A stretch of 63,898 nt of DNA, the filler included, from Reclinomonas americana ATCC 50394 (Eukaryota): the NCBI GenBank assembly GCA_048213135.1. It is 5 parts of 3 records of this genome, joined end to end, with 100 filler letters (N's around TTAATTAATTAA, not from the genome) between each part and the next. Parts side by side here need not be neighbours in the genome. Positions count along the whole stretch, not along the records: positions 1 to 25,941 come from PS015357.1; positions 26,042 to 42,476 come from PS015359.1; positions 42,577 to 57,211 come from PS015359.1; positions 57,312 to 62,205 come from PS015359.1; 1 more part is not named here. One strand, 5' to 3'. Below, piece after piece: positions 3,043 through 62,205 of the stretch. Numbering within the stretch: the stretch's first letter is position 1; each line of letters begins with the position of its first letter. Position numbers and translations under genes: made by a program. Under the pieces are notes generated by a model that saw only the letters and a program-made list of their open reading frames with translations, did not search any database and was not told the origin of the DNA.

Positions 3043-3047
3043 ACTCC
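3043..3047. repeat. 5-bp target-site duplication ACTCC (left copy)
   Basis: Immediately precedes TGT at 3048; identical to 61649-61653. Confidence 0.85.
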
Positions 3048-3182
3048 TGTAGCGTCTCAATAAAGTTGAATCCGGCCTAGCTCTAACTCGTTGATTTTCC
3101 TAAGAGCAGATTTCTGAAATTAAGAATCTAAATTCAGAAAAGTAGCCTTAAAAAACGCCATTCTCAAAAATCGCGAGTCTAG
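3048..3182 (+). repeat. Transposon left end with three spaced putative TnsB sites
   Basis: TCTCAATAAAGTTGAATCC (3055-3073), TCTGAAATTAAGAATCT (3113-3129), TCTCAAAAATCGCGAGTCTAG (3162-3182). Confidence 0.8.
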
Positions 3183-3379
3183 CGCGCTTCCAGATTACGA
3201 GTATCGCAGCGAAAGCAGCGGTGCAACATTTTGTTTACTATCTTGGAGCGGGCGGGTGAGCGGGCAATCTGGACCATGCGCCTTCTCCGCGTCCGCTATT
3301 CGGGGGATGCCACGTCGCTAACCAATGTTGTGCCGCGGATAGTGGGTGCGCAGGCGCCAGCTCCAGGCCGATTGCGCAT

Positions 3380-4747
3380 TCACTCCGTGGCTGGTCGCAA
3401 GTGCTGATCACGCAGGTGAACCGTGGTCTGATCGATGCTCGGATAGACAGTGGTCGCGTTGATGTTGATGGCATCCAACTGCGCCAGAATATGCTCCTTG
3501 TTACCCACGGTTACCCGCGAAACCTCGATCCCGTCGTTGCCCCACTCCGGCAACGTTGCCTCATGACCGAAGAGAAGGAACGCCCCCGATTGGGACTTGA
3601 TCCGGCTATTGGTCCTTTTTGCCTTGACACACACGACAGAGCCGAGATCGTCGGGCTTGATCCGACCTTCGAAATAGCTCTTTTCCGACTTGATATGGTG
3701 GAGCAGTTTACGAGCGACATCAGTCTCGTTGAACTGCACGGCATCCAGGCGAAGGTCGATCAGGCTCTTTTGGGAATGAGGCAGGTTCGAGAGGTTCGCT
3801 AGGCAGCTGACCGTATCGGAGTCGAAGTACTTCACCTTGTCGCGCGCAAGGCGAAAGACAATCACCTCCCCTTTCGTCTCCATGAGCTCCGGCTTGCAGT
3901 GACAGGCGAAGAACAAGGCGACGAGAGGATTGCCCGAGATATCGAGCAAGCGGGTGGGAAGGCCATAGTGCTGCATTCTCACCAAGCGATCGAAGCAGTA
4001 CTGGTCGCCTTGGAACTCGTCGTAGTGAGCGATCAGCACTTCCTTGCAGAGCCGGTCCTCGTCCGGCATGTATTTCCACGATCCGTTCGGCCACTTTCTG
4101 AGCAGCGACGGCGTTAGTTCGAACGTGCCATCCTCATGGCCGCGGTAAAAACTTTCCGCTGTCGGGTCCTTTTCGACGTCGAAGAGCACCTTGAGAAAGC
4201 TCTCGACGCTGTCGGCCTCGCCAATCTCATTCTTTCGGCGCTCGGGCGGCTCAGCCGCCACTCCGGCTCGTCCGTCGCCGTAGCGCGCCATGGCTTCCCG
4301 CCCACCGGCACTGAAGTCAGCAAGGTTCGTCAATACGTCCCGGTAATTGCCAGGCCGCACCGCCCAATGGGTTCGATAAAGCTGGAAGTTGACGATTCCG
4401 AACGCCTTGCGAGCCGCCTCGACGCTTGGAAACTGGACTTCGCCAAAATTGACTGCGGTGCTGAATTGCGCAGCGACCACCTTCTTGTCGGCGCGGATTT
4501 GCCGCAGGTGTCCGAACCGGACGAGCATCGTCGGCTGGTCAGGGCCGGTGTCGATCTCGCTGCAGAGAAAGGTCGGCAACTTTTCCAGGAAGGCCAACGC
4601 CGGCCCGTCCAAACCGACCAGTCGCTGTTCTGTGTCTGTCGGGGTATGCTCGAACATGCGGCCCCGGCCCATCTCGATCAACGTATCGTCCTCGGCAAGC
4701 CAGGAGCGGTTGCCAAACGAGATGTAGTTGAAGTTTTCGAGCATCAT
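3380..4747 (-). CDS. FRG domain-containing protein
   Basis: FYRGH...LTPSLLR and MQHYGLPTRLLDISGNPLVALFFAC, plus NSRIKSQSGAF; extra uncharacterised N-terminal domain. Confidence 0.9.
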   Translation of the reverse strand: MMLENFNYISFGNRSWLAEDDTLIEMGRGRMFEHTPTDTEQRLVGLDGPALAFLEKLPTFLCSEIDTGPDQPTMLVRFGHLRQIRADKKVVAAQFSTAVNFGEVQFPSVEAARKAFGIVNFQLYRTHWAVRPGNYRDVLTNLADFSAGGREAMARYGDGRAGVAAEPPERRKNEIGEADSVESFLKVLFDVEKDPTAESFYRGHEDGTFELTPSLLRKWPNGSWKYMPDEDRLCKEVLIAHYDEFQGDQYCFDRLVRMQHYGLPTRLLDISGNPLVALFFACHCKPELMETKGEVIVFRLARDKVKYFDSDTVSCLANLSNLPHSQKSLIDLRLDAVQFNETDVARKLLHHIKSEKSYFEGRIKPDDLGSVVCVKAKRTNSRIKSQSGAFLLFGHEATLPEWGNDGIEVSRVTVGNKEHILAQLDAININATTVYPSIDQTTVHLRDQHLRPATE

Positions 4748-4817
4748 TCCTCGAAGCGGCTAGTGACGTCTTTCGCAACACAATTTGGAAAGGTTGCAGC
4801 TCACGGCCCTCGTTCCC

Positions 4818-7256
4818 TCACGTCTCAATCGTCAGCGGCACTCGGGTCTTCAGGGTAGCAATCGACGCTTCGGTCTCAGTGGCGAGGTCGACGTCAATCC
4901 GCGCGGTCTCGATCGAGGCGATCAGGGAAAATCGTACGGTTTCCAACGGGTCTCCCGCGCCACTGTTGTTCCGCCACCATCCATATTGAGGATAAATGGC
5001 GATGGCGCCCATTTGGCTCAGATCGCTTGCGCGGCCTGTCCAAATGTCCTGCCGGATCGAGCCGTTGGAGCGCTTTTTGTCGCCTAGGAGCCAGGTTCCC
5101 ACCGGTTGCCTCGTCGGAAGCTTCTTGCCCGGCTCTCGGGCCAGCTTGTTGATCCTCGCAATTGCAAGCTCGTCGTGGTCGTCGGGATCTTTGATATCGA
5201 ATTTGAGGTGATGAGAATGATAGTTTTGAGCCCTTTGAGCGTTGAGTGCGAGAGGGGCAGGGTCGGTAAAATAAGAAAGTGTGATCCTTAAACTAACGTC
5301 CGCTGTCCCGAGTGCCTCAAGCGCATCGATTGGCCAAGGAAGGCGATAATATCGCATAAGGGCGTGCTGCCACTTTTTGTTTTTATTTTGCAAGAGCTGA
5401 AGCTCGTCCTGGATAATCATCGTGAGCGCATTGTTCGCACTCTCAAAGACGCGCTTTTCATTGGGCACGCCCCACCCGAAGCGGTGGAGCAAATTATCCA
5501 CGGTGGACCGACTCACGCGACCGGCGCGAGCTTCCATCGCCGGGGTCCAACGCGCGGCGTGGACGACAAGCCCGCGAACCGTCTCCGGCCAGAACTCGGG
5601 ATATGCGGCCATCACCCGCGTGCAGAGACCGGCGGCCGCTGCCGTCGCAATGCTCGTGTCCGTGCCGGCGGCAAAGGGCCGATTGGGCAGCTCGTGGTGC
5701 GTTGTGAGGACAGATAGCTTGTCTGCTTTTCCTAGGGTCAGCCCTTCGTCGTCAGCAAATAGATTTCCACCCTCCATCACAATATCAGGCTTGTGACCCA
5801 AGCGGTGTTCCCAGCTGATGCTCGTCCGGGCGGTCGGACATAAATCCCCCGCAGGCGCGTGACCCAGCGTTGGCTTCTGTCCGCTGATTGCCGTGTATGC
5901 TCCCACCGTCAGCGCATTGACCGACTGCCCGGGCGACTGGATCCCCGCTTCATCATTGGCTGTGGTGTATCCTGCTACCTCGGCGGGAAGAGTGTCGATA
6001 TTGCCGGCGGCGATGCAGAACAGTCTCTTCGGGTTGTCGCGGCCGAAGCTTAGCCTGTCGACCAAGGATGACAGAGCGCCGGGAGATCCGTTGCAGGGAT
6101 CTGCGGGAAGGCTGAATGAGAGCGAGTAGACGCGTTCCGAACGCTGCTTCTCGTTCAGCCTGAACGCAGCAATGAGTGCCTCTGCGGCGCTTTTGAAGGG
6201 AGCGCCGTGGCTGTTGAATATCGCCACAGACTCCAGGGCAGTCGTCAATTTTATCGGCCCGGTTGATCCGTTAATCCAGCGCGTAAGGTCGCCGAACAGG
6301 GCCGCGCCAGCCATTTGTGTGCCGTGACCATGTGCGTCTTCGGCTTGAAGTCCTGTGGCAATCGCGTGCGCGCGACTTTCTGGGAGGGAGCCCGCAAGCA
6401 ACGGATGATTGTGGCGGACGCCAGTGTCTATGACCGCTGTGCGAGGAGCATTTGACCCGGCAAGCTCCAGGCGCCCTTGCAGCGAACGCGTGAGGTCGAC
6501 CCGCTCGCGGGGTGTCAACGAGGTTGGCGGGATTCCGATTGTCGAAGCGGGCCGAATTTCGACGGCCGCGGCGGTCGCCTCGAGGAGTGCCTTGAGATTG
6601 TTGAATGTGCCGGTGAGGACAACCACTATTGCGTTGGGGAAGCTGATGGGCTCGCTATTTTGTTGCAACGAGAATTCACGAGCCAGTCTGCTGACGGTCT
6701 CGAAAGCCTCGGGCCTGAGCCAGATCTCCCAATCCTGCTGACCGGTCGCTTTGGCACGAAGACTCATCCCGGGAGGTCCGGCCCAGAGCGGCTCGATGCC
6801 TGTCGGAGCGACGGACCTTATCTGCTCAAAAAAGGAAAAATGCCTGGGGCGGTTCCCTTCCTCGTTCCAATCGCCATAACGCTCGACAGCCGTCGTAAGC
6901 TTCTTGAGAGAGCTTTCGGAGGCGTAGGCGTGAACCTTTTGATTCAGCCCCTTTCCGACCGATTTGAGCAGCGTTATCCCGTGCGTGGCTTGAAAGAATT
7001 GAAGATCAATGCCGACGTCTGTCCGGGCGTCGAACCGCATCAGCGCGCCACGCTCGTCTTTCCTCAACTCATTCCTGATTGCCGCACGTCGTTCTGCGTA
7101 TGCGGTGACGACGCCTGCAACGTTCTCGGTCAGCTTTGAAGCATGAGCGGGCCGATTGTGTACGGGCGGCGTCGGCACTGGTTCGAGCGGTGCAGTGACG
7201 GGGGAGAAAGCCCGATCTAGGCCAATCTTCTTGCGAACGATCAGGTGCTGCGCCAA
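4818..7256 (-). CDS. ietS: S8 subtilisin-like serine protease (IetS-like)
   Basis: Catalytic D (VIDTG), H (HGHGTQMAG), oxyanion N (AAGN), S (DTSIAT); HKPDIVMEGGN and WPETVRGLVVHAARW; no signal peptide; directly follows an AAA ATPase. Confidence 0.85.
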   Translation of the reverse strand: MAQHLIVRKKIGLDRAFSPVTAPLEPVPTPPVHNRPAHASKLTENVAGVVTAYAERRAAIRNELRKDERGALMRFDARTDVGIDLQFFQATHGITLLKSVGKGLNQKVHAYASESSLKKLTTAVERYGDWNEEGNRPRHFSFFEQIRSVAPTGIEPLWAGPPGMSLRAKATGQQDWEIWLRPEAFETVSRLAREFSLQQNSEPISFPNAIVVVLTGTFNNLKALLEATAAAVEIRPASTIGIPPTSLTPRERVDLTRSLQGRLELAGSNAPRTAVIDTGVRHNHPLLAGSLPESRAHAIATGLQAEDAHGHGTQMAGAALFGDLTRWINGSTGPIKLTTALESVAIFNSHGAPFKSAAEALIAAFRLNEKQRSERVYSLSFSLPADPCNGSPGALSSLVDRLSFGRDNPKRLFCIAAGNIDTLPAEVAGYTTANDEAGIQSPGQSVNALTVGAYTAISGQKPTLGHAPAGDLCPTARTSISWEHRLGHKPDIVMEGGNLFADDEGLTLGKADKLSVLTTHHELPNRPFAAGTDTSIATAAAAGLCTRVMAAYPEFWPETVRGLVVHAARWTPAMEARAGRVSRSTVDNLLHRFGWGVPNEKRVFESANNALTMIIQDELQLLQNKNKKWQHALMRYYRLPWPIDALEALGTADVSLRITLSYFTDPAPLALNAQRAQNYHSHHLKFDIKDPDDHDELAIARINKLAREPGKKLPTRQPVGTWLLGDKKRSNGSIRQDIWTGRASDLSQMGAIAIYPQYGWWRNNSGAGDPLETVRFSLIASIETARIDVDLATETEASIATLKTRVPLTIET

Positions 7257-7292
7257 GAATCACTCCCTCACCCAAGCGAAGAAGTGAACTTA

Positions 7293-8300
7293 TCAATGAT
7301 CGTGGCGTCGTTCCGCAATTGCCCCAAGGATTAATTCTGAGGACATTACACCGCCGTGCTCCAGAACGGCATCTCTGGCGGCATCTTGAGCGGCGGATGC
7401 AAGATCTGCCGGGCTCATTCCTTCTGCCGCCTGGAGGATCTCGGGCCAGTTGAGGCCATCCAGTTCAAAAGCCAGCAGGTGCATTTCGAACAGTGGCTGA
7501 ATCAGGTCTCGCTCGGGCAGTTCAAATTTGAGCTGCGTGTCAAATCGGCGGAAAACCGCCCGGTCCAGCAACTCGGGATGATTGGTTGCCGCGAGGATTA
7601 AGCTGGAGCTCTTATCCTCGTCGAGAAACTGAAGCAGGGAATTCAAAACACGACGAGCTTCGCCGACGTCATTCCCGACGACACGGGACGTCGCCAGGGC
7701 ATCGACCTCATCAAAGAAATACACGCCGCGCGTCGATGTCATGGCGTCGAAAACCAGGCGCAGTTTCGCGGCGGTTTCGCCCATGAACTTCGTGATCAGT
7801 CCGTCCAACTGGATCGTGAACAACGGATAGTTCAACTCGCCCGCGATGGCCGCCGCCGTCATCGTCTTCCCGGTACCCGGCGGCCCGGAGAGGAGGATCT
7901 TTCGGCGCGGAGACAATCCAAAATCTCCGAGGCGCGCTCTTTCGAGCTGCTCCCTAACGAGCTTGGCGAGGCGGGCAGCCAGCCGCGGCGGCAGCACCAG
8001 GTCGTTGAGTTTTAGACGCGGGAAAGACGCTGACAATATGCCGGCCAGCTCACCCCTCGGCTTCGCCAGCGGAATTGGGTCGCGCGAAAGCTCCAATGCA
8101 CCAATCTGCGAACGGGCCTCGGCTATAAGATCGCGCATTTCCTGGGCGACGCGTATGTGGCCCTTTTTTACAGCCTCCTCAGCCAGCTGCGTGGCCACTG
8201 ACAGAAATCGCCGGTCGTCGCGCGCATTATGGCTCCGCAGCAGAGACAAAATCTGCTGCGCATTGCCTACCGGCCCATTTTTTCCTGCCGACCCGGTCAT
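7293..8300 (-). CDS. ietA: AAA+ ATPase (IetA-like)
   Basis: Walker A GPPGTGKT, Walker B FFDEVD, AATNHPELLDRAVFRRFD; paired with the S8 protease. Confidence 0.85.
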   Translation of the reverse strand: MTGSAGKNGPVGNAQQILSLLRSHNARDDRRFLSVATQLAEEAVKKGHIRVAQEMRDLIAEARSQIGALELSRDPIPLAKPRGELAGILSASFPRLKLNDLVLPPRLAARLAKLVREQLERARLGDFGLSPRRKILLSGPPGTGKTMTAAAIAGELNYPLFTIQLDGLITKFMGETAAKLRLVFDAMTSTRGVYFFDEVDALATSRVVGNDVGEARRVLNSLLQFLDEDKSSSLILAATNHPELLDRAVFRRFDTQLKFELPERDLIQPLFEMHLLAFELDGLNWPEILQAAEGMSPADLASAAQDAARDAVLEHGGVMSSELILGAIAERRHDH

Positions 8301-13003: not shown

Positions 13004-13996
13004 TCAGTCCAGTATTTCTTCCCAAGGGCCCTTCCAGACTTGCTGCGGCAGGAGCGGCCTGTCCGAGGTGAAGGGATTCAGCGCCACGGCATTCGAGAAC
13101 TTCCATAGGCGGTCGAATGCAGAGGCCAGGATCGCGTTGTCGATGACGTTGCTGCCCTGCATGATGGCATCTGTCGCGGCGATCTGCAGGAGTTTTGCCG
13201 TGGCGCCGGGGTAGCCCAGCGAAGCAGCATGGATTCGAGCCGCAACATCAGGCTTGGCAAAATTGCTTCGCGAAAAATCTGCGACCGTCACGAACTGGTG
13301 GTCGAAATTGGCCAGGTACGCCCTGTAGAGCTCCCAGTCTTTCTTCTGTTGCGGGTTGCGTTGGTAAGGCTCGACTTCCCAGTGGAAGTCATTGCGGCCG
13401 ATCAGATGCCCGTTCTTCGCAAAGACCGAGCGTGCGCGCGTCGTGCCGACCAGGAGGACGGCGCATATTCCGCGGCAATTGTTGATCAGATTCTGGATCC
13501 AGTCCGAAACGTTCTTGGATACCTTCCCTCGGTCCTTCTCGACCAGACGCTGAAGCTCGTCAAAAATGATGAGGGTTGTGCCGCGCCGGCGAAGGGTCGC
13601 CACGAGCTCGACTCTTTTGAAATCACCGTCCCCCTTTTCGGGGTTGAGATGATTGAGGGCCGTCAAGGCGGCGCGACCCAACGTTTTGGTCGTGGCGCCT
13701 GACGGAACCTCCACATAGACCACTGGCACGCGATCGGCCGCCCCCTCTCTGATGGGTGGATGCTTCGACATGAAAGTGTCGATGATCGTCGTCTTTCCGC
13801 CACGGGTCGGCGCGGTCAGCGACGCCGATGCGGACTCGCCTCCTCCCAGGGCCGTGTCTTTGAACAACTGGATCTTCTTCACCAGATCAATTGTCCGATC
13901 GTTCTCAATCCGAATGCCTTTTATCGCATTGATGCGAGATGCGTGGCGATCGGACAGCTCCATATGATTGGAGCTCATTAAAACCGTCTGCAGCAT
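13004..13996 (-). CDS. tnsC: TnsC/TniB AAA+ ATPase
   Basis: Walker A APTRGGKTT, PVVYVEVP, Walker B LIIFDELQRL, VLLVGT; between tnsB and tniQ. Confidence 0.9.
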   Translation of the reverse strand: MLQTVLMSSNHMELSDRHASRINAIKGIRIENDRTIDLVKKIQLFKDTALGGGESASASLTAPTRGGKTTIIDTFMSKHPPIREGAADRVPVVYVEVPSGATTKTLGRAALTALNHLNPEKGDGDFKRVELVATLRRRGTTLIIFDELQRLVEKDRGKVSKNVSDWIQNLINNCRGICAVLLVGTTRARSVFAKNGHLIGRNDFHWEVEPYQRNPQQKKDWELYRAYLANFDHQFVTVADFSRSNFAKPDVAARIHAASLGYPGATAKLLQIAATDAIMQGSNVIDNAILASAFDRLWKFSNAVALNPFTSDRPLLPQQVWKGPWEEILD

Positions 13997-13998: not shown

Positions 13999-16164
13999 TT
14001 AAGCCTTGTGAATCGTATTGAATGAATATTTTGCCAAGAGCGCGTCGGTATCGTCTTCGTCTTCGAATTCCGACGAGGGCTCCGTGGGGTTCGATTTGGG
14101 TGCTGCCGATGTGATGGCAGGGAGCGGCGCCGTGCTTGCTACCCCTTGCGTCGAAGCATCGCCCTCACGCGTTTCTTCGTCGTCGAGCTTTTGGGATGAA
14201 GCGACCTGCATCGGCACGGTGCCCACGGAAATTGGCCGGGTCGTTGAGCCATTGTCGCTTTGAACCACGGCGATGGTTGTGGATTTCTGCGATCCAATAC
14301 CTTGAAAGCGGGCATCAGCCGCCTTTCCGCGGCCTTCGCGGATGGCTTGTGCGGTTTCCTCGATCAATTCGGCTCGGGTGATCATCAGATCGCGGAAATC
14401 TTTGGGGTTCCGCTCTCTGCGGCGATTTTCGTCGCGAATAAGCCCGTGCTGCCAAAGCGAAAGCCCCTTGGCATAATCGAATTCGTCGCAGCGCATCGGC
14501 CCCAGATACTGGCCAGTCTGTGGCTCTCGTACGTAGATGCAGCCGAGATCCGTGGGGTCGAAGCGCACGTCGACATCAACGCGAGGGGCGCGAGCAGAGG
14601 CCAGGATCGTCCGAACGACGTTGTCGTTTCGATATGTCAGGCCTTTAAATCTGATGCCTTCACGGGAGATGGACCGGCTGGCGTATCGCGATAGCGAATG
14701 GGCGAGATCTCCCATCCGCGCCGGCAGTTCCACACGATGGCGCTGCGTTCCCTCGATCCAGCGCTTTTCCGGTGTGGTTCCCATAGAACGATTGCGGGAA
14801 CGCGCGTAATCCTTCACCAACCACCGTAAGAACATGCTCTCGAAGGTGAGAAACGAGATGCACATTTCCTGTTGAGGGTTCAGTTCGAGAGCCTTCAACT
14901 TCCGTGCATCGCCAAAGGTGGTTCCCGGTAGCCGGTGGATAAAACGCGTGTTCATCGTGCCGAAGAAGCGCTCGATGATACCCTTGTAGTGAGGCGTTCG
15001 GACGGGCGATGTCTCCAGTTCGATGCCGAGTTCCGCGCACGCGTTCGGCAAGGAATAGCCGACCATTTCTTTGCCGTTGTCGGCGATCAGCTTGAACGGC
15101 ACGCCCATGGCGAGCCAATCGTCTGCAACGCCTGCCTTTCTGCGGGCGAGATCGAGCTTCGGCGCAATGGCCTGCCGCAGGCACATCATCACCGAATAGA
15201 CGCTCGGCGGTTCGAAGCCGATGTAATAGCCGAGCGGATAGCGCGAATAGGCATCCAGGGCTATCGTGAGCCAAGGGCGCCCACCGCAGGGCAAGCCAGT
15301 CGCGTCGTCGAAAAAGAGCCAGCTGTCGATCTTGGTGTGATCGATGATGATTGCTTCCAGTGGAGCATCATGCTGCGGGGCGGCTTTCAGCGGGCGCAAA
15401 AGCCTATCGGCTTGCCGTCCGAGCCGAAGCCGCATCGTCCGATAATAGTCGCTGTCACGAACACGCCGAAAAACCGTGGCCTGGCTGGGCTCCGGCAATT
15501 CCTGCCCGGCTGGCGCCGGCTCGCCGCTGCAATCGTCAAGGAGCCCGGCGTTCCGCTTGGCGATCTGGCCAATGACGTGTTCGTAGACGGCGCTTGGCGG
15601 CAGGTTGCCTCGATTCTGATACACAGATGCGATGCTTTCGCTGATGATCAGCTCGACATCAGCATCGATCCCCTTTTTGCGCCCCTTCTTGTCATGGAAG
15701 GAGCGCATTGCCCGTAAATTGCGCCGGCCGGAAACCCCTCGGGTCCTCAGCCACCGGCAGAGGGTTCTCCAATCGGGCTTGTGGGTGTGGCCTTCTCGGG
15801 CGGCGACAGCATCGATGAGTGCGGACAAATCCTGCTCATTCTTCCGCGGCCGCGGGTCAGCTTGATCAAATGCGACGCAATAGCAGTGACGCCAAAGTGC
15901 CTCCTGCGGAAACTTCGCCGGGAGAGCATCGAGCGCGCGTTCCGCCGCGACCCGGTATTTTTCAGGCAAGCGCGACCAGGATGGCACCGCAATGCGATCG
16001 GCGAGGTAGAGCTCGATGAACCCGTTCTCGTCGAGCACACGGCGACGCCCATTCTCTTCATCGTCGAAGGCCATCCGGCCGTCTTGGAGCAGCCGGGCGA
16101 ATTGAAATGCCCGCTGGTCGATCATGACGGTCGTGTCGACCTTGAGCCTCAGGTTCGCGTTCAA
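13999..16164 (-). CDS. tnsB: TnsB DDE transposase with Mu-like C-terminal domain
   Basis: IDHTKID, RPWLTIALDAYSR, ADNGKEM, KGIIERFFGT, VRFDPTDLGCIYV. Confidence 0.93.
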   Translation of the reverse strand: MNANLRLKVDTTVMIDQRAFQFARLLQDGRMAFDDEENGRRRVLDENGFIELYLADRIAVPSWSRLPEKYRVAAERALDALPAKFPQEALWRHCYCVAFDQADPRPRKNEQDLSALIDAVAAREGHTHKPDWRTLCRWLRTRGVSGRRNLRAMRSFHDKKGRKKGIDADVELIISESIASVYQNRGNLPPSAVYEHVIGQIAKRNAGLLDDCSGEPAPAGQELPEPSQATVFRRVRDSDYYRTMRLRLGRQADRLLRPLKAAPQHDAPLEAIIIDHTKIDSWLFFDDATGLPCGGRPWLTIALDAYSRYPLGYYIGFEPPSVYSVMMCLRQAIAPKLDLARRKAGVADDWLAMGVPFKLIADNGKEMVGYSLPNACAELGIELETSPVRTPHYKGIIERFFGTMNTRFIHRLPGTTFGDARKLKALELNPQQEMCISFLTFESMFLRWLVKDYARSRNRSMGTTPEKRWIEGTQRHRVELPARMGDLAHSLSRYASRSISREGIRFKGLTYRNDNVVRTILASARAPRVDVDVRFDPTDLGCIYVREPQTGQYLGPMRCDEFDYAKGLSLWQHGLIRDENRRRERNPKDFRDLMITRAELIEETAQAIREGRGKAADARFQGIGSQKSTTIAVVQSDNGSTTRPISVGTVPMQVASSQKLDDEETREGDASTQGVASTAPLPAITSAAPKSNPTEPSSEFEDEDDTDALLAKYSFNTIHKA

Positions 16165-16177: not shown

Positions 16178-16945
16178 TCAAGCCGCTTCTTGGACTGATG
16201 GCATTGCGCTCAGCCGTGTCTCGTAACCGGCCTTGAGCCGAACTCTCGTCTGGCCGTTCACGGGCCTGGAAAGGTCCACCGAGATGATCCTGCGGGCGAT
16301 CAGAGCGAGGACGCGATCTTCCGCCCGTTCCTGCCCGACGAGCACCCGAGCGCAGTCGTGCATGGTCGACTCTGAACGTGCCTCGAGGTGCTGGATGAGC
16401 GCCGCGAGCTCAAACGGGCCTGGGCAAAGCCGGCGCGTCTTCTCGACCATTCGAGCATTGTTGTGCCAGACCGGGAACATGCGAAAGCGCATGTCGGAAA
16501 CGATCTGAAAGTTGATTCCAACGGAACGATAGAGGTGCCGCGCATGGTGGATCTTCGCGCGGTACAAAGGATCGAGCTTGCGCAAATCGTCCCGGTATTT
16601 GCATTCGACGATGCGCGTTACGCCGTCCTCCTGCTCCACCTCAAAGTCGGGAGTGTATCGGACCTTTCGGCCACCGAGCCTGAAGGACAGCGTGTGCGGC
16701 TGCTCTCTGTAGCTCACGACAGATTCGTCCACTTCGAACCATCGGATTGCCTTCCGCTCAAGCCGCGATTCCCAAGCGATCATCCGTCTGGATTTGACGC
16801 TAGGGACCAATCCGACGGGCATGTGTCGTCGGCCATTGAAGATCTTACGAACCGGAGAGCCGTCGTCTCGTTGTTCGATCACCGCGTCTGCCTGTGAAAG
16901 CAGATCGTCGAGGCGCTGTTTGGCATCCCTGTCATTCACAAGCAT
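16178..16945 (-). CDS. tnsA: TnsA endonuclease
   Basis: WESRLER, YREQP, RYTPDFEV and IVECKY (PD-(D/E)xK); first gene of the tns operon. Confidence 0.9.
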   Translation of the reverse strand: MLVNDRDAKQRLDDLLSQADAVIEQRDDGSPVRKIFNGRRHMPVGLVPSVKSRRMIAWESRLERKAIRWFEVDESVVSYREQPHTLSFRLGGRKVRYTPDFEVEQEDGVTRIVECKYRDDLRKLDPLYRAKIHHARHLYRSVGINFQIVSDMRFRMFPVWHNNARMVEKTRRLCPGPFELAALIQHLEARSESTMHDCARVLVGQERAEDRVLALIARRIISVDLSRPVNGQTRVRLKAGYETRLSAMPSVQEAA

Positions 16946-17724
16946 GGAACCTATTCGCCGATGCCTCCCAGATCCTGGGCTGGCAAGGAAAGCCGAAGTT
17001 GATTTCTTGGATCAGCGGAAATCATGCGCGGATGGCGAAGACAAAACTGTCTAAGGACTGTGGTTTCGGCTTCTGTCGATCCCCGCTAAAGTCAAACAGG
17101 TGGGGTCAGATCGCAAAATTGCATGGCCCTGCTGCGAGCGAGGAATTGAAATTGAAGCACGATTGTCACGTTCCTGCGCGATTATTTGGTGACGACCTAC
17201 CATCGCCATTCTGCCCAGAATGTTAATGAGGCCCCTCTGCGCGCCGCTTCCTTGGCGAGAAGCGTAGGTATCGTTTCTCAATCCTTATGCGCTGGCATAT
17301 CGCCCAAGGATTTCGCTATGATTCCTTGAAGAGCGAGGCAGGCCGGCCGGACAACGAGACAAGGGGCGCATTAGGTCGCCATGCTGTGTGAGCTCAGACG
17401 CAGGGACTGTCGACAAGCAGCAAACTTTGCGATCCTTATCTGATGAAGGACTGTTCGACCGGACGGACGGAAGCGAGTTGGTCAGAAGCGCACGAACTTG
17501 AAGATGAGAGGACCTGGCGCCGCTGGATGCCGCTTGCAACGGCAAATCGTGATGTGTGAATGAAGGGTATCGGCTTGAACAGCGCGGCTGCGCAGGAGAA
17601 TGCAGTGGCGAGCCTTGAAGCTCCGCCGAGCTTGGCGGAACCCTGGTATTATAGCAGTGCTATCAAAATATTTCACCTGGAAAATTCGGAGCCTGCTCCT
17701 TTGGCGGGAATCGCGCTTCTTCCC

Positions 17725-18012
17725 ATGCGCCGCGAAACCCTGATCGCGGGGTACCTATGCCAAGCCGCACGGTCGTTGCTGAACGTGTCCCAGGCTTGGC
17801 TTTGGGAGCAAGCGAAGGTTTCCAGGAAAACCATCAACGACTTCGAGAACGGGTTTTCTCAGCCCAAGCCGGCCTTGGTTGCGCGCATTCGACAGGCGCT
17901 TGAAGAAGAAGGCGCCCGATTTGTCTCGGGCGATCGGGTGGTCGGCGTTGTCGTCTATTCGTCGCCGCTTACTGCAGCTCAAAGGTCGCGGTCAGAAAAG
18001 CTGCGGAGCTGA
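17725..18012 (+). CDS. XRE-family transcriptional regulator
   Basis: CQAARSLLNVSQAWLWEQAKVSRKTINDFENG...IRQALEEEGARF; divergent from tnsA; start uncertain. Confidence 0.8.
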   Translation: MRRETLIAGYLCQAARSLLNVSQAWLWEQAKVSRKTINDFENGFSQPKPALVARIRQALEEEGARFVSGDRVVGVVVYSSPLTAAQRSRSEKLRS

Positions 18013-18582
18013 TGGTCGTGTCGTTAACCATATTTATTTAAAATTCTAACGATATTTTCATATCACTGATATATTGATTGTCGGGCGGATGGTCTCGACG
18101 GCTCCCGGGGTCAACCGATTTCTCCGGCAGCGCTCTGCCAAGCCACCTCCCATACCGACTGCTCCTCGACATCTCTGGCGATCCGGCTCTTGCCGGCCAT
18201 GTTGCTCATCGTGATGTGGCCGGTCGGTGGCTTCATCAGTCCAGCAACGGAGTCTCTTATGAGAGCACAACGGCGCTTCAAGCTGGCCTATCCGCGTTCT
18301 CTGGCCTCCACGGCCCTTCGACGCCTTGATAGAACCTCCGGTCGAAAAACGGCCCGCCGTCTGGCCCCAAGGACACCAGTCACCGCTTGGCATGAGACCG
18401 AGGACCTGGACGTCCTGCTTGATGACGATTTCGATGAACTCCTCTGGGACCCGAGAATTCTCCTGCAGCTTGCCAATCAAAATTGAAGGGATGATCGGCG
18501 CGCTCAAGGCCCGCCTCGAAACTCGATCAGCATCCAGCGGCTTCAGATTTCTCGTTCTATGTCGACACAAGAAGGAGCCAAT

Positions 18583-20700: not shown

Positions 20701-20915
20701 TCCGCCTCGGCCAAGCCCTGCATGAAGACGAAGGGTCGGGTTCTCTGCCGGAGGTCGAGGCTCTTTTGCTCCAGGCAACCCACGACCTTGCCGCCACCCT
20801 AGGCGTCGAGCCTGAGCAGGCATTGCGCGCCCTCGCGGTTGTCATACGGCGGCGCGCTGATTTCGAGCGCCTCAAAGGCGCGGCCAAGGCAACCTCAGGT
20901 CGCATCCTCCGCTGA
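20697..20915 (+). CDS. Small helical hypothetical protein
   Basis: ATGA overlap with the stop of the FtsH-like gene. Confidence 0.55.
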   Translation: MIRLGQALHEDEGSGSLPEVEALLLQATHDLAATLGVEPEQALRALAVVIRRRADFERLKGAAKATSGRILR

Positions 20916-21010
20916 GCGCACCGCGGTTCTGAGAATCTACGATTGCCTGCCAGCCGGCTCTCGCCGGTTGGGTGCGCTTTTGACCGAAATCGCCCCGAAG
21001 GAGGTTCGCC

Positions 21011-21364
21011 ATGAAAGAACTGGCAGAGAAGATCATGTCGGCGGCCGCTGACCTTCGCCGTCTCGAAGCGGGCTGGCGCCCAACAGAGGTCGACCTGGAA
21101 GAAGCTGTTGGACTCGATGATTGGCTGCAAGGGATCGATTGCGAGACTAAGCAGCATGTTCTCATTGGACAGTCGGTCGGCCACCCAATTCTCGGCGATC
21201 AGCTTATTACCACCAGCCCTGTATTGTGGATCAGTCAGGATCGTAAAATTGCCCGGACACTGAGCCGCTGGTACCGCCTACGGAAGCCTGCTGCATTGGT
21301 GACCGCGCATCAGACTTCCGCGGATCGGGCGAAACCGGAGGACCCAGGGCCGCTTCGTGGCTGA
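21011..21364 (+). CDS. DUF6634-like protein
   Basis: LIGQSVGHPILG...TTSPVLWI...ARTLSRWYRL pattern; AAGGAGG RBS. Confidence 0.7.
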   Translation: MKELAEKIMSAAADLRRLEAGWRPTEVDLEEAVGLDDWLQGIDCETKQHVLIGQSVGHPILGDQLITTSPVLWISQDRKIARTLSRWYRLRKPAALVTAHQTSADRAKPEDPGPLRG

Positions 21365-21432
21365 CCGGGGCGGCAAGTCCGTCTGCAGCGCCTCCTCGCG
21401 TATTCATCGAAATAGCCCGAGGATCCTGACCG

Positions 21433-21804
21433 ATGGCTGAACCGTTGACCAGATCGGAGGAGCTCGTGCTCATTCGCACAGTCATCTCCTTGCTCAAAAA
21501 CTGGTCCGCCAATGATGGCGAAGCGCGAACAATTCTGAATCTGTCGCCGACAACATATGCCGAATGGAGGCGGAACAACGTTGGCTACGTCTCCTCGGAG
21601 CAGGTTTATCGCTCGACCCTTCTTTTGCAGATCCATGCAGCGCTGAGAATGCGCTTCAGCAATGCAAGTCGCGCGGCGGGATGGATGAACCGTCCGAACG
21701 ACATCTTTTCAGGACGAACCCCACTTGCGCTGATCGCCGGCGGCGAGCTCTCATCGCTTGAGCGTCTCCTGGCGTATTTGGCCGCTGACCTTTCGCCGTG
21801 GTGA
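21433..21804 (+). CDS. Xre/MbcA/ParS-type antitoxin (orphan)
   Basis: LLLQIHAALRMRF...WMNRPNDIFSGRTPLALI...LAYL. Confidence 0.8.
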   Translation: MAEPLTRSEELVLIRTVISLLKNWSANDGEARTILNLSPTTYAEWRRNNVGYVSSEQVYRSTLLLQIHAALRMRFSNASRAAGWMNRPNDIFSGRTPLALIAGGELSSLERLLAYLAADLSPW

Positions 21805-21907
21805 ACCGGTCCCCGACGTGCACGCGCTTGGAGCTCGACTTTGTCGGTGGACCGAAGTGGCAAGATTGGCCGATCCGGCTTTTGCGCCCTATTACAGGCT
21901 GGCATGC

Positions 21908-23820: not shown

Positions 23821-23851
23821 CGACTCCTGTCCTCGTTTCGTGGAGATTCCG

Positions 23852-24235: not shown

Positions 24236-24282
24236 CTGCGGGTTGGGACGTCCCGGGCAAACCTGAGCGTTAGGAGGCTGCC

Positions 24283-24753: not shown

Positions 24754-24846
24754 AACACTTCACATCCGAAGTCGACATCCCCATTTCAAGCTTAGGTCCT
24801 CAAGCCCCGACCGGGTTGCCCTCGGGGCAAGCCAGAGGAGGCTACG

Positions 24847-57311: not shown

Positions 57312-57803
57312 GGACTGGTGACCAGGAAACTCGGACAAGCGCGCCGCGTGCTGGTGGCCAGCCCCGGCTATCTGGATGCCGCCGGGCGGCCCCGGACGCC
57401 GCAGGATCTTGCGCGGATGGATACGTTCAGCAGGCCCGGCGACGTGCATGACGGCCAGGCGCGGTGGGCACTCGCCGGCCCGTCGGGCCAGGCCGCCGTG
57501 ATAACGCACACGCCCAGGCTGTCGACCGACGATCTGCGCATGCAGCTCCAGGCCGCCGTCAACGGCATCGGCGTCGCATTGCTGCCAGAACCTATCGTGT
57601 CCGCATCCGTCCGCAGCGGCGTTCTCGAAACGGTGCTTCCGCACTGGTCCGCCGAGACTCATATGATCCATTTGCTCTATCCGACCCCACGGGGAATGCT
57701 GCCGTCGGTGCGCAGCCTGATCGACTATCTGGCGGTGCATCTGCCCGCCTGTATCCAGGAGCGAAGCGTCGAGCTGGAGGATGACCACGACCAGACACGA
57801 TAG
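57312..57803 (+). CDS. LysR regulator, C-terminal part
   Basis: LVASPGYL..GRPRTPQDL, AAVNGIGVALLP, VRSLIDYL. Confidence 0.85.
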   Translation, partial: GLVTRKLGQARRVLVASPGYLDAAGRPRTPQDLARMDTFSRPGDVHDGQARWALAGPSGQAAVITHTPRLSTDDLRMQLQAAVNGIGVALLPEPIVSASVRSGVLETVLPHWSAETHMIHLLYPTPRGMLPSVRSLIDYLAVHLPACIQERSVELEDDHDQTR

Positions 57804-57849
57804 GCGGCCCGGGTCGAGCGCCTCTTTGCAGGCTTTCCGAGATATCCTC

Positions 57850-58488
57850 TCACAGAGCCCGATCAGGCGCGAACCAGGACGGGTACATCGCCTCGATGGC
57901 GGCCAGCAGCATCCGTTCATCGCGAGGCGCGGGAAGACGCAGCCAGGCCTCGACAGCGCCGGCGGCGCCATGGGCGAGCTGAGCCGCATAGAGCGCGGCG
58001 GCTTCCGGTCCCGGCATCGGCGGGTTCACAAAGCCTTCGCGAAATATGGTCAGCATGGATTGCTCGATATGCTCGGCGAGCACCACGCGCAGGGCAAACT
58101 TTGCCGAGGCGCGGCCGACACCGCCATAGACATCCTCATGCTTGAGGACATGCGCCAGAATTGCGTGCAGCGTGCTGCGGGTCAGGTCGCGCAGCAGAAG
58201 GCCGTCGCGTTCGAGCTGGTCCATCCCGCGCCGCCGCACCATATCCAGCTCGCAGGAGAGGACGCGGGTCAGCAGTTCCACGGGCGTTCGGGCATGTTCG
58301 TAAAAGGTGCTGCGGTTTATGCCCGCGCGGCGCGTTAGCTCCGAAACCGACGCGCTCGTGATGTCCCGCTCGGCCGCCAGCGAAAGCACCGCGGCGGCGA
58401 GCCGGGCACGGGTGCGCTCTATCCGCACATCCTCGGCCTCGGCGCCGTCGCCAAAGCCCTTGTCCGCCGCTTGTGAATGCACCGTCAT
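57850..58488 (-). CDS. TetR family regulator
   Basis: DVRIERTRARL, SVSELTRRAGINRSTFYEH. Confidence 0.9.
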   Translation of the reverse strand: MTVHSQAADKGFGDGAEAEDVRIERTRARLAAAVLSLAAERDITSASVSELTRRAGINRSTFYEHARTPVELLTRVLSCELDMVRRRGMDQLERDGLLLRDLTRSTLHAILAHVLKHEDVYGGVGRASAKFALRVVLAEHIEQSMLTIFREGFVNPPMPGPEAAALYAAQLAHGAAGAVEAWLRLPAPRDERMLLAAIEAMYPSWFAPDRAL

Positions 58489-58512
58489 CTGCCGCCTCGA
58501 TCAAGGCTGGTT

Positions 58513-58533
58513 AATCCAACACCTGTCGGTTAT
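58513..58533. promoter_or_regulatory. Putative TetR operator 1
   Basis: AATCCAACACCTGTCGGTTAT, imperfect palindrome in the divergent promoter region. Confidence 0.65.
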
Positions 58534-58605
58534 CATGCTAAGAGAGCGGCGCTTCGATCGTCAAGCCGGACCGGCGGCGGCATTGGGATAGAGGACGGAA
58601 AACAG

Positions 58606-59672
58606 ATGAAAGACCTCACGGCATTGGTGCTGGGCGGCACCGGCGACGTTGGCGAAGGCATTGTCCGCAGCTTTCTGAAGCACGGCGCAACCGTTATCGT
58701 GCCTTCCCGAAGCCAGGTGAAACTCGACGGCCTGCGCGACTATGTCGGGGACATCCAGGCAGGCACGCTGAAAACCGTCACGGGCCTTTTCGATACGCCG
58801 GCGGAGGCGGAAGCACTGCGGGACAGGATCGGCCAGCTCGCAATCCGGGTCGATATCGTCGTAGCGGCGCTGGGCGGCTGGTCNNNNNNNNNNNNNNNNN
58901 NNNNNNNNNNNNNNNNNNNNNNNNNNNNNNNNNNNNNNNNNNNNNNNNNNNNNNNNNNNNNNNNNNNNNNNNNNNNNNNNNNNNNNNNNNNNNNNNNNNN
59001 NNNNNNNNNNNNNNNNNNNNNNNNNNNNNNNNNNNNNNNNNNNNNNNNNNNNNNNNNNNNNNNNNNNNNNNNNNNNNNNNNNNNNNNNNNNNNNNNNNNN
59101 NNNNNNNNNNNNNNNNNNNNNNNNNNNNNNNNNNNNNNNNNNNNNNNNNNNNNNNNNNNNNNNNNNNNNACGCCGGCGGAGGCGGAAGCACTGCGGACAG
59201 GATCGGCAGCTCGCAAGTCCGGGTCGATATCGTCGTAGCGGCGTTGGGCGGCTGGTCGCAGGGCTTTGCCCTTACCGATCTCGGCTTCGATCAATGGGAA
59301 CAGATCGTCCGGAACAACCTGACGACTCACTTCCTTGCGATGAAGACGTTCGTGCCCCTGCTGGCGGCCGGGAGCGGCGTCTATGTCCACATCAACGGGC
59401 AGAGCGCCGAAGGCCCGCATCCTGGCGCGGGGCCAGTGGCGGCCATGTCGGCCGCGCAGAGGTCGCTGGCATTGACGCTCGCCGAAGAGCTTCGCCCTTC
59501 CGAAGTGCGGGTGCACGAGCTTCTCCTGCCGCCGGTCAACACGCGCAGGCGCATCAGCCGCCACCATGACCGCCCCGAATGGCCGACCGCCGAGGAGGTC
59601 GGCGACTATGTCGCGACGCTGATTGAGCGGAACGATCAGACGGTCGTTCATTGGATCGAGCCGAAGAAATGA
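58606..59672 (+). CDS. SDR oxidoreductase (gap flanks overlap, so the gene is probably contiguous)
   Basis: LGGTGDVGEG; about 88 bp are repeated on both sides of the gap. Confidence 0.8.
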
Positions 59673-59777
59673 CCCTCGGCCTTGGCCTTCCTTCCGGTCG
59701 AACGGAGGCCGAGCATGGCAGCGGCGTTGCCGTCAACCGACCGCGCCGGCGCGCCCCGCTCACGGTAGAGGCTAGAA

Positions 59778-59798
59778 AATCCGACACCTGTCGCTTAT
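59778..59798. promoter_or_regulatory. Putative TetR operator 2
   Basis: AATCCGACACCTGTCGCTTAT, 19/21 identical to operator 1; upstream of the NmrA-like gene. Confidence 0.65.
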
Positions 59799-59889
59799 TC
59801 TCGCAACGCGGCGGCGTGACAGCCGTCCAACCGAATAAAGCGCCCGATCGATGCGTTCGGGCGCACCGCTTCGAGCAAAAGGGATCGCA

Positions 59890-60810
59890 ATGACCGAACA
59901 GAACAAGATCGTCGTCCTGGCCGGCGCGACGGGCAATCTGGGCTCCCTCATCGCTCACGCTTTGCTGAACAAGCCGGAGGTGCGGTTGCGGGCTCTGGTG
60001 CGCCCGGCGAGCGCCGGAAAGCTAGCGGCTCTGCGGGAGAAGGGCGTCGAGATCGTGGAGATCGATCTCGATGACGAGACGCAAGGCGAAAAGCTCGCGA
60101 CGGCGCTGAACGGAGCGTTCTCGGTGGTTTCCGCCATCCAGGGCGGTCCGGACGTGATCGTCGGTGACCAGTTGCGGCTGCTCGATGCGGCCAGCCGGAC
60201 AAAGGTCCGTCGCTTCATCCCGTCCAGCTTCTCCTACAACATTTTCGGCCTCGACGACGGCGAGAATATCAACACCGACGACCGCCGCGCCTTCGCCCGT
60301 GAGGCGGAAAAAGCTCGCGGCGCGGTCGAGGTCGTTCACATCAACATCGGCGCGTTTCTCGATCGGCGCGTCCTGTTCGGCTTCCTCGGGGCATTCGACC
60401 TCGACGCGGGACAGGCTTTCCTTTGGGGAGACGGCCAGACCGCGATGGACTTCACGACCTATGAGGACACCGCGCGGTTCACAGCCGAAGTGGCAGTCGA
60501 CGAGGGGCAGGTTCCCAGCGTGTTCGAGGTCGCCGGCGATACGCTGACATTCCACGAACTGGTGAGGGCCTACGAAGAGGCGTCCGGAAAATCCATTGCC
60601 GTCGTGAAGAAGGGAAGCCTCGCCGATCTCGATCGCGAGATCGAGCAGCGCAGGCAGGCCGAACCGCAGAACGTGTACGGCTGGCTGCCGCTGATGTACT
60701 GGCGCGGCATGCTGTCGGGCAAGGGCAAGCTCCACGCGATCGCGAACGACCGCTATCCGTGGATCAAGCCGCAGACCGTTCGGGACTATGTCCGTCAGGA
60801 AGGGCTTTGA
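59890..60810 (+). CDS. NmrA/isoflavone-reductase-like NAD(P)-binding protein
   Basis: LAGATGNLG, VRRFIPSSF, WGDG..MDFTTYEDTA. Confidence 0.88.
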   Translation: MTEQNKIVVLAGATGNLGSLIAHALLNKPEVRLRALVRPASAGKLAALREKGVEIVEIDLDDETQGEKLATALNGAFSVVSAIQGGPDVIVGDQLRLLDAASRTKVRRFIPSSFSYNIFGLDDGENINTDDRRAFAREAEKARGAVEVVHINIGAFLDRRVLFGFLGAFDLDAGQAFLWGDGQTAMDFTTYEDTARFTAEVAVDEGQVPSVFEVAGDTLTFHELVRAYEEASGKSIAVVKKGSLADLDREIEQRRQAEPQNVYGWLPLMYWRGMLSGKGKLHAIANDRYPWIKPQTVRDYVRQEGL

Positions 60811-60987
60811 CCGAGATCCTTCCATGAGCAGACATGGCTGCTCCCCGGCACGGGAGAAAAGCTCTCATGCGAGTCTGGCGTCAGGGCGACGCCGCTCTGC
60901 TTCGCTGCGGCATGCCAGACGGAGGCGCTGATGATCCCGAAGAATGTCGGGCGACCGCTCCAAGACGCTCCATATGACCTGATATCT

Positions 60988-61101
60988 GCCGACCGCCTCT
61001 TCCTCGACGGAGAGTACCGTCGACCGCGGCTCCTTCGGTCCAGTCGGCAGGTCGGCGGCAGAGGGCCGCTTCTTCCACTTCGCCACGGTCTTTGGATTGA
61101 T
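60988..61101 (-). pseudogene. IS481-family transposase fragment
   Basis: INPKTVAKWKKRPSAADLPTGPKEPRSTVLSVEEEAV. Confidence 0.7.
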
Positions 61102-61386
61102 CCAGGACCGAAGTTCTACGGCGCCTTTCTCGCAGCGCTGAAGGAGGCGACAGAAATAGTGAGCAATGACAAGGGGGCGGCGGCGGAAGCCTATCTGCGC
61201 TTCACCAAGGACCGCTCCTCCAAGGAAGAGCTCGTTTCGATCCTTACCGATAAGACCACGCGCATTCACTACCGACGTGCTCAACCTCGGCTCCTTCACG
61301 GAGTTCATGGGCAAGGTCGGCCGTCTGAAAAACCCGCCTGCAGATTGGAAAAAGAGATGCTCTTTCCTGAAGCAACGGCTCAATAA
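61102..61386 (+). pseudogene. ABC substrate-binding protein 3' relic
   Basis: PKFYGAFLAALKEA..AAAEAY, then FMGKVGRLKNPPADWK in a shifted frame. Confidence 0.6.
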
Positions 61387-61589
61387 TCCGATATCAGACA
61401 CCATCGGGGGCTTGAGCGCCTATTGCGCCAAGCCTTCTAGGACCAGCAACAAGCGAATGCGTCCTAGGTCGGGTCGACAACGGCCCGTAAATCAATCTGT
61501 CGTCGTCAACACCTCATACGTAGGGACAAGCCCTCATGCGATGGGAGACATCTGCCTTGAGCGGCGTGGGCGCGACTATTTGCGCTGTT

Positions 61590-61648
61590 CTCCAATTGAT
61601 CCAGACTCAGCAATTCAGACCTAGACTCATTCTTTCTGAGATACGACA
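61590..61648 (-). repeat. Transposon right end with adjacent putative TnsB sites
   Basis: Minus strand TGTCGTATCTCAGAAAGAATGAGTCTAGGTCTGAATTGCTGAGTCTGGATCAATTG; AGACTCA recurs at a 20-bp period (61603, 61623). Confidence 0.82.
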
Positions 61649-61653
61649 ACTCC
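61649..61653. repeat. 5-bp target-site duplication ACTCC (right copy)
   Basis: Directly follows terminal ACA; identical to 3043-3047. Confidence 0.85.
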
Positions 61654-61658
61654 TCCGC

Positions 61659-62205
61659 TCAGGTGTCGACCGTCGCGTTCAGCGCGTTGCTCTGGATGAA
61701 TTCGCGGCGCGGCTCGACCACGTCGCCCATCAGCTTGACGAAGAGGTCGTCGGCCTCGTCGTTCTGGTCGTTCTTGACGCGCAGCAGCGAGCGCACATCG
61801 CGGTCGAGCGTCGTCTCCCAGAGCTGGTCCGGGTTCATCTCGCCGAGACCTTTGTAGCGCTGCAGCGAGACGCCCTTCTTGCCGATCGCGTTGACCGCAT
61901 CGAACAGGTCGCTCGGGCCGTTGACGATGTGGTCGTCGCCCTTGCGGCTGAGCACGCCCGGCTTGGCATAGGCTTCCTGCAGCGACGAGGCGGCAGCGTC
62001 GAGCTTGCGGGCCTCGGCGCTGGCGAGCAGGCCGGCATCGAGCGCCACCACCTGCTTCACGCCGCGCACCAGCCGCGAGAAGGTGAAGCCGCCATCGGCT
62101 GCCTTGCCCTCCCAGCCGCGCTCGATCTCGTCCGAGATCGCATCGAGTCGGCGCGCGACAGTAAGCTGCGGACCTCGGCGAGCTCGGCCTCGCTGCGCTC
62201 GCCCG
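61659..62205 (-). CDS. gyrB: DNA gyrase subunit B, 3' portion
   Basis: [20 protein letters not shown]...[18 protein letters not shown], preceded by proteobacterial GyrB insert sequence, which ParE lacks. Confidence 0.93.

Follow-up and report, generated by a model that had tools for sequence, protein, structure and literature searches.

The window examined here is a stretch of 63,898 bases from the draft assembly of Reclinomonas americana ATCC 50394 (GCA_048213135.1), in which a preliminary description, made from the sequence alone, had recognised a Tn7-like transposon and proposed the 3' end of gyrB as its attachment (att) site. Our analysis supports that proposal through empty sites, independent duplications and eight gyrB-adjacent copies. 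We conclude, with a probability of roughly 0.88, that the two termini in the window belong to one Tn7-like cut-and-paste insertion, placed 5 bp past the gyrB stop codon with duplication of ACTCC, and that this family of elements homes to the gyrB 3' end. Feature coordinates are collected in Table 1.

The termini, TGT from 3048 and ACA up to 61648, lie where they had been placed before. Over the first 28 nt, the left end and the reverse-complemented right end agree at 17 positions, and agreement of at least this extent was reached by a fraction of 3.1e-4 of 200,000 random 28-mer pairs drawn from the window (mean 7.4). The internal repeats reported earlier are also present: the right end consists of two abutting sites of ~20 bp (61601-61641), and the left end has a related one (3162-3182), which differs at 5 of 21 positions. 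This right-end architecture is common to the homologous ends in genomes G001, G016, G039 and G224 and in locus L075, and the left end is 98% identical to those of G016 and G001. TGT...ACA termini with repeated putative transposase sites, packed on the right and spaced on the left, are characteristic of Tn7-like transposons. ACTCC flanks both ends, as described, and the right copy is followed by TCCGC and then by the gyrB stop codon in complement, TCA (61659-61661). The duplication thus lies 5 bp and the TGT 10 nt past the stop, and gyrB is left intact. Duplications of 5 bp, the size typical of Tn7-like transposons, flank the copies in G001 (TCGCG) and G016 (GTGGG) as well.

The target scores as gyrB and not as its paralogue parE. 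The last 181 GyrB residues reach 141 bits on the NCBIfam model NF011501 'DNA gyrase subunit B', compared with 48-65 bits on parE models, and the full-length homologue from G001 reaches 966 bits (gyrB equivalog cutoff, 882) and contains the GyrB insert domain.

For comparison we used relatives numbered G001 to G127. When 111 genomes of the genus were searched with the final 63 bases of the left flank, a single perfect match was obtained, in G126, where window positions 2212-3048 (99.6% identity) are joined directly to positions 61649-62204 (98.7%) with one ACTCC (locus L066). The sequence of this empty site is ...GAGCAGAGCCAT-ACTCC-TCCGCTCAGGTGTCGAC, and the form predicted by the preliminary description (...GAGCAGAGCCAT-ACTCC-TCCGCTCA-gyrB) occurs there verbatim. 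Because the flanks are joined in G126 with a single ACTCC, both ends bound one insertion event.

Two further genomes of the genus carry the same element at this place. In G016, which is near-finished (two contigs), the gyrB TGA is followed by 10 nt, GTGGG and TGTCGTATGCC (TGTCGT...), which puts the TGT 15 nt after the stop; the element measures 57,460 bp, and its left end (...GCTACA) is again followed by GTGGG. Its tnsB is split by an IS66-family element and its selector gene carries a stop. In G001 the right end reads ACGACA-TCGCG-ACGA-TCA (stop) at gyrB, the left end, TCGCG-TGTAGCG, is found on another contig, and the element is at least 63.4 kb long; uninterrupted sites of the G001 type (...TCGCGACGATCA) are present in G017 and G025. 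The window and G001 share 99% identity in TnsB and 98% in the selector, whereas their gyrB 3' ends are just 88% identical. Across the three hosts, gyrB 3' ends are 87-88% and transposition proteins 82-99% identical. Since the duplications differ between the copies, the insertions appear to be independent, and the comparison points to recent events. The selector is present in 2 of the 111 genomes, and the motif 'ACGACA-N5-20-gyrB end' occurs in the same two.

By sequence, the tns genes of the window would supply all four core proteins of a Tn7-like element (TnsA, TnsB, TnsC/TniB and a TniQ-family selector), and each of them is recognised by Pfam and by solved structures, in agreement with the earlier assignment. 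TnsB matches the TnsB proteins of PseCAST (9e-50), Tn6677 (5e-45) and Tn7 (4e-22) in the PDB. TnsA is hit by the NCBIfam TnsA-like model at 2e-20 and 73 bits, below its 110-bit cutoff. The selector combines an N-terminal TniQ core and a zinc-finger cysteine set, in which C152, C169 and C172 are invariant and C155 is near-invariant, with a C-terminal array of helix-turn-helix (HTH) domains; residues 712-830 resemble the N-terminal HTH region of IS630-type proteins in NCBIfam, below cutoff. Compared with solved structures by sequence, the selector found no relative. In an AlphaFold model (10-sequence alignment, mean predicted local distance difference test score 72), its first ~400 residues match solved TniQ chains (E 1e-5) and, more weakly, the TnsD-TnsC-DNA complex (E 2.5e-3); the C-terminal half gave no informative structure match, the N-terminal TniQ part alone being matched. 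No TnsE was seen in the element, and Cas families were absent among 67 open reading frames of the window scanned with Pfam, a scan that covers the assembled parts and did not include a CRISPR-array search.

The selector was then used to collect homologous elements, as had been suggested earlier, and eight elements abut gyrB. A word-indexed protein search returned four close homologues and two weak ones, and an exhaustive profile-free search returned 1,138 TniQ-family matches at E<=1e-3, ten of them at E<=1e-30, with the nearest clusters outside the selector's own at 26-27% identity. An order-wide sample of 401 genomes contained four matches at E<=1e-25, namely G001, G039, G224 and G465; the last is matched in the TniQ core alone, and its locus of 3.8 kb showed no gyrB. 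Thirteen loci, four of them places already known, came from a pattern scan of 185,579 species genomes built on a 4-sequence selector alignment (A2). gyrB lies within the ±10-kb locus in five (L074, L075, L076, L078 and L084), and farther off than 10 kb in two that hold a window-type element (L072 and L073). The gyrB-adjacent hosts are, by record, two species of Methylopila, Chenggangzhangella, Inquilinus and a metagenome-assembled genome of Acetobacteraceae. The selectors of G039, G224 and L075, all encoded beside gyrB, are colinear with that of the window over more than 800 residues (25-27% identity); those of L078 and L084 share 612 and 132 residues with it, and both loci have Tn7-like ends after gyrB.

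In all gyrB-adjacent cases, an end that starts with TGT and contains repeated sites lies 0-15 nt past the stop: 0 (L084), 1 (G224), 1 (L075), 6 (G039), 9 (G001), 10 (window), 11 (L078) and 15 nt (G016). The end with two abutting sites faces gyrB in six window-type and Methylopila-type copies. Insertion in one orientation downstream of one conserved gene, the hallmark of a TnsD-type selector, is thus seen in independent hosts and eight copies. Counted from the first codon of the conserved EPRREFIQ motif, the insertion points of five copies lie at 67, 66, 72, 66 and 61 nt, a spacing that would be compatible with a selector measuring from conserved coding sequence. The interior is less uniform. 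From tnsA to the gyrB-proximal end we counted 41 kb in G016, at least 24 kb in G001, at least 13 kb in the window and 5.5 kb in L078, and the cargo in this interval differs in each copy. In G039, G224 and L075 it is the selector gene that adjoins the gyrB-proximal end. The polarity of Tn7, which the preliminary description had ascribed to the element, therefore holds for the architecture of the ends and fails for the genes, as tnsA is far from the gyrB-proximal end and the operon is reversed in three loci. The distal end of the G039 element was not found within 40 kb, and that of G224 is a candidate only (L063:1683-12243, duplication GTGAT), with about one chance match expected in the 20 kb searched.

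How much of the window belongs to the element depends on its make-up. It consists of several DNA pieces separated by four identical joints of 44 N, TTAATTAATTAA and 44 N. As these are artificial scaffold joints, spans across them should not be taken as contiguous. Scaffolds B, C and D follow one another in descending length, which suggests ordering by size rather than synteny, and adjacent scaffolds may be non-neighbours in the genome. Scaffold A carries the left end and scaffold D the right one; the distance of 58.6 kb between them is therefore an artefact of concatenation and no measured length, and the single feature at 3043..61661 given earlier does not stand as contiguous DNA. Assignable to the element are only 3048-25941 and 57312-61648, together 27.2 kb, so that its true length is at least 27.2 kb. 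Scaffold A is counted to its end because no end-like sequence follows tnsA (none was found in 16946-17620). Positions 9991-25941 are 98.2% identical to contig C12 of G001, which extends 7 kb beyond, and the interior of scaffold D (57312..61600) had no match at E<=1e-20 in G126, G001 or G016. The remaining runs of N resemble scaffold gaps: a 947-N run (1265-2211) corresponds to 32 bp in G126, and a 945-N run within scaffold B to 442 bp in G001. Scaffold B (26042-42476) and the first 3,187 nt of scaffold C (42577-45763) are 100% identical to contig C35 of G001, while the transposon flanks, 99.6% and 98.7% identical to G126, share just 78-88% identity with G001. Either the draft is a mix of two lineages from one genus, or it contains very recent mobile DNA in common with G001.

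Several observations weigh against our interpretation of a single insertion by a gyrB-homing family. The assembly may mix lineages, with scaffold B and the start of C identical to G001 and the flanks resembling G126; the interior is unassembled between ends on separate scaffolds, and nested elements are possible. The order-wide search scored two candidates per genome, which limits its sensitivity. Six of the 13 loci from the pattern scan (L077 and L079-L083) have no gyrB within 10 kb. Homologues at scattered positions had been named earlier as a contrary sign; eight elements sit at gyrB, and the six loci without it share the N-terminal part of the selector only, two of them being short. The insertion point varies over 15 bp between copies, a spread looser than that of Tn7 at glmS. 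Finally, copies differ in how the tns operon is oriented: away from gyrB in the window, G016, G001 and L078, and towards it in G039, G224 and L075, from which it follows that its direction relative to the ends has flipped within the clade.

The finding could also be a known case, if gyrB has already been described as a Tn7-like attachment site. We regard this as unlikely, if less so than the other alternatives: large censuses of Tn7-like elements exist whose supplements are visible only in part, but no gyrB or gyrase attachment site appears in the Tn7-like literature searched. A full-text search for Tn7, Tn7-like, TnsD, TniQ or tnsA together with gyrB or gyrase, outside of which subscription-only papers fall, found no such site described. 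The terms 'gyr' and 'gyrase' are absent from the main texts, as accessible, of PMC10293859, PMC8649781, PMC11406308 and the preprint 10.1101/2025.07.27.667033, and 'gyrB' and 'gyrase' are absent from one supplement file of PMC8649781 and two of PMC10293859. In the accessible part of PMC12452197, gyrB serves as a phylogenetic marker only. The text and Table 1 of PMC11406308 list glmS, yhiN, comM, parE, tRNA genes, guaC, yciA, ffs, rsmJ and resolution sites. The earlier remark that gyrB is not among the described sites thus agrees with the literature searched, and the gyrB element represents a familiar kind of transposon with a new variant of attachment site.

A second alternative is that the ends derive from two elements, for example in a tandem array, and that no single transposon spans both. 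Their location on different scaffolds would allow this, and tandem occupancy has a precedent in G016, where an end of another type (TGTAGGGGCACCC...), a remnant of a further Tn7-like lineage, begins 42 bp past the left-end duplication (start of L052). Successive insertions at different points would, however, give different outer 5-mers, and here the outer flanks are the same 5-mer, present once in the G126 empty site; moreover, the same pair of ends bounds a contiguous 57.5-kb segment with matching GTGGG in G016. We therefore consider two elements very improbable. The idea that mobile DNA in general has a hotspot downstream of gyrB, owing to some feature of DNA topology or replication and without sequence recognition by a selector, draws on at least two other kinds of Tn7-like end and an odd repeat-bearing sequence that follow gyrB elsewhere in the genus (in G023, G006 and G019), as well as on a G006 selector barely similar to that of the window (E 2e-4, local alignment only), but it has very little probability given the eight clade insertions within 15 nt of the stop, the constant facing of the two-site end in the six copies named above and the coincidence of selector and occupied site in 2 of 111 genomes, and other Tn7-like lineages at this spot fit convergent homing equally well.

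For a family that homes to gyrB, the domain content of the selector and the EPRREFIQ spacing suggest the following sequence of steps. The C-terminal HTH array, which partly resembles the bipartite DNA-binding region of IS630-family transposases (below cutoff), would bind the final ~70 bp of the gyrB coding sequence, which are conserved. By analogy with Tn7, for which TnsD at glmS is the established precedent, the TniQ core would then recruit TnsC. TnsC would in turn direct TnsA and TnsB, which would excise the element and insert it immediately behind the stop codon with a 5-bp duplication. The end with two abutting TnsB sites would always be placed towards gyrB, and the essential gene would stay intact. 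The ends, their orientation, the duplications, the empty sites and the joint occurrence of selector and site are observed; DNA binding and the order of assembly are here modelled on Tn7.

The element resembles Tn7 in its TnsA/TnsB heteromeric transposase, its TnsC adaptor and its TniQ-family selector with a C-terminal DNA-binding extension, in TGT...ACA ends whose several TnsB sites are packed on one side and spaced on the other, in the 5-bp duplication, and in a single orientation of insertion, directly behind the stop of a conserved, essential gene towards which the packed end is turned; in Tn7 it is likewise the packed right end that faces glmS. It differs in its target, in the absence of a visible TnsE, in a selector without a solved relative by sequence, in a tnsA gene tens of kb from the gene-proximal end, and in an insertion point that varies by up to 15 bp. 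According to the accessible text of PMC11406308, parE-homing CRISPR-associated transposons of type I-F3 (Tn7017-type, TniQ-targeted) also use the 3' side of a gene for a type II topoisomerase B subunit, parE being a paralogue of gyrB. Among solved structures, the TnsB and TnsC proteins of the window are nearest to those of the I-F3 type; no Cas domain is found among the open reading frames scanned here, and the target here scores as gyrB. Table 1 of the same source lists Tn6230 (yhiN) and Tn6022/AbaR (comM), which likewise combine a dedicated chromosomal site with large cargo islands and have other target genes; Tn6022 inserts inside comM and uses TniQ and a second protein, whereas the gyrB family spares its target gene.

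Tn7-type elements are valued because they place large DNA into one predictable and harmless chromosomal site, so that every additional pair of selector and site adds to the natural safe harbours and the programmable integration tools available. Bacteria universally have gyrB, with high conservation of its last codons, and a selector that homes to it could therefore function in many hosts. The family also illustrates how very large islands, 57 kb long in G016 and at least 63 kb in G001, are put together and exchanged at one site; their cargo comprises defence systems (IetAS, PDC-S15), genes for metal resistance and metabolic genes.

Table 1. Features of the window, in window coordinates.
Feature	Position	Strand	Remarks
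Scaffold A	1-25941
Scaffold B			16,435 bp
Scaffold C			14,635 bp
Scaffold D			4,894 bp
Scaffold E	62306-window end
Joints	25942-26041, 42477-42576, 57212-57311, 62206-62305	no strand	44 N + TTAATTAATTAA + 44 N
dcd (dCTP deaminase) 3' fragment	2830..2997	-	cut at 2997; native flank outside the element
Left target-site duplication, ACTCC	3043..3047	no strand	single copy in G126 empty site
Left (distal) transposon end, TGTAGCG...	3048..3185	+	TnsB-site-like repeats set apart: terminal site and 3162-3182
FRG-domain protein, candidate defence gene PDC-S15	3380..4747	-	Pfam FRG 3e-17; PADLOC PDC-S15 5e-98
IetS subtilase	4818-7256	-	Pfam Peptidase_S8; PADLOC IetS 3e-29
IetA AAA ATPase	7293-8300	-	Pfam AAA; PADLOC IetA 3e-73
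Small HTH protein	8297-8632	-	cargo
Papain-family C1 peptidase	8977-9834	-	cargo
TniQ/TnsD-type selector, 985 aa	10044..13001	-	Pfam TniQ 1e-6, HTH_23, HTH_32, HTH_33
TnsC, TniB-type AAA+ adaptor	13004..13996	-	Pfam TniB 1.5e-18; PDB VchTnsC 6e-13
TnsB, DDE transposase	13999..16164	-	Pfam rve + Mu-transpos_C
TnsA, endonuclease subunit	16178..16945	-	Pfam PF08722 Tn7_TnsA-like_N 1.5e-10; PDB PseTnsA 2e-6
Interior upstream of tnsA to scaffold end	16946..25941	no strand	FtsH-like gene, GDSL-like hydrolase, DUF305/DUF326 proteins (Pfam)
FtsH-like AAA+/M41 protease gene	18559-20700	+
Scaffold D interior	57312..61600	no strand	cargo-like: LysR fragment, SDR fragments, NmrA-like, 179-aa open reading frame (Pfam)
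Right (gyrB-proximal) end	61601..61648	-	reverse complement TGTCGTA, then two abutting TnsB-site-like repeats
Right target-site duplication, ACTCC	61649..61653	no strand	single copy in G126 empty site
gyrB 3' end, last 182 codons	61659..62204	-	scaffold ends at 62205; 98.7% identical to G126

On the left, the element is flanked by the remnant of a dcd gene, which is cut to its last ~56 codons in the lineage of the window and in G126. The homologue extends past window position 2997 in six relatives, and these six have the whole gene away from gyrB; the full dcd in L007 matches Pfam DCD_N and DCD_C, and in G020 dcd is inverted and lies 30 kb from gyrB. Because G126 has the truncated gene beside gyrB without the transposon, the truncation is native to this lineage and older than the insertion, and a transposon-caused inversion or deletion, which we had also considered, was rejected on the same ground. 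The flank at 3043, expected next to gyrB in relatives, adjoins it in the closest one, G126, and does not in more distant ones, since the truncated-dcd arrangement belongs to the lineage of the window and G126. An alignment of the last 50 bp of the left flank to the sequence following gyrB in G003 and G020 reached a local score of 22, which is at chance level (shuffled sequences, 20.7 ± 3.2); the exact empty site in G126 takes the place of this comparison.

The cargo between the selector and the left end is a defence region, which includes IetS and IetA as a pair (4818..8300, minus strand). This left-end cargo (3048-9815) is 98.5% identical to that of G016, whereas the tns genes (9943-16913) are only 88% identical to those of G016; the left-side cargo of G001 itself differs from that of the window. 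Together, these comparisons suggest that the window copy is a mosaic of the G016 and G001 copies, formed by recombination between elements at the shared site. In G001, genes for the chromate-resistance proteins ChrA and ChrB lie beside the gyrB-proximal end (L006:4032-7986), and an RND/HlyD-type metal-efflux set lies upstream of tnsA (L056:13572-18590). In G016, codon GC is host-like over most of the 41-kb stretch from the end to tnsA, where metabolic genes are found, and there are two inverted IS21-family copies, one just inside the gyrB-proximal end (L049:3157-5525) and one just beyond the left end (L052:463-2705).

An FtsH-like AAA+/M41 gene is found close to tnsA, at most a few kb away, both in the window and in the gyrB-homing elements of four relatives, a second transposon lineage included (L053:14196-16388, L063:9516-11786, L061:6722-8836 and L075:2885-4498), and is often accompanied by a DUF6634 gene (G006 and G016). 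It may be a conserved accessory gene of the clade.

The second lineage is located after gyrB in G006 (L061, G006:C2:128401-148400) and G023 (L022). Its ends read TGTAGGGGCACCC and have GAGTC repeats, and it encodes an 830-aa TnsB-like protein (31% identical to TnsB), a split TnsC and two TniQ proteins of 629 and 980 aa, the larger with HTH_17/MerR domains. A broader picture, which is possible and which we hold to be somewhat doubtful as a whole, is that the gyrB 3' end serves in Alphaproteobacteria as a widely used safe harbour, like glmS for Tn7, on which at least two and perhaps three unrelated selectors have converged (IS630-like HTH here, HTH_17/MerR in G006 and HTH_17/wHTH in L078), where elements stack in tandem, and for which the FtsH-like gene, found beside tnsA in the majority of these elements, would represent a new accessory factor of the clade.

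Scaffold E (62306-63898) does not carry gyrB onward. It contains an ABC1-kinase domain spread over two reading frames of the minus strand (62373-62882 and 62704-63381), adjoined by low-complexity GA/GT-rich sequence; the split could reflect an intron or a frameshift, and possibly non-bacterial DNA. In G019 (L024), repeated TTTTTTGGT motifs directly follow the gyrB stop, and this sequence could be the end of another mobile element at the gyrB site.

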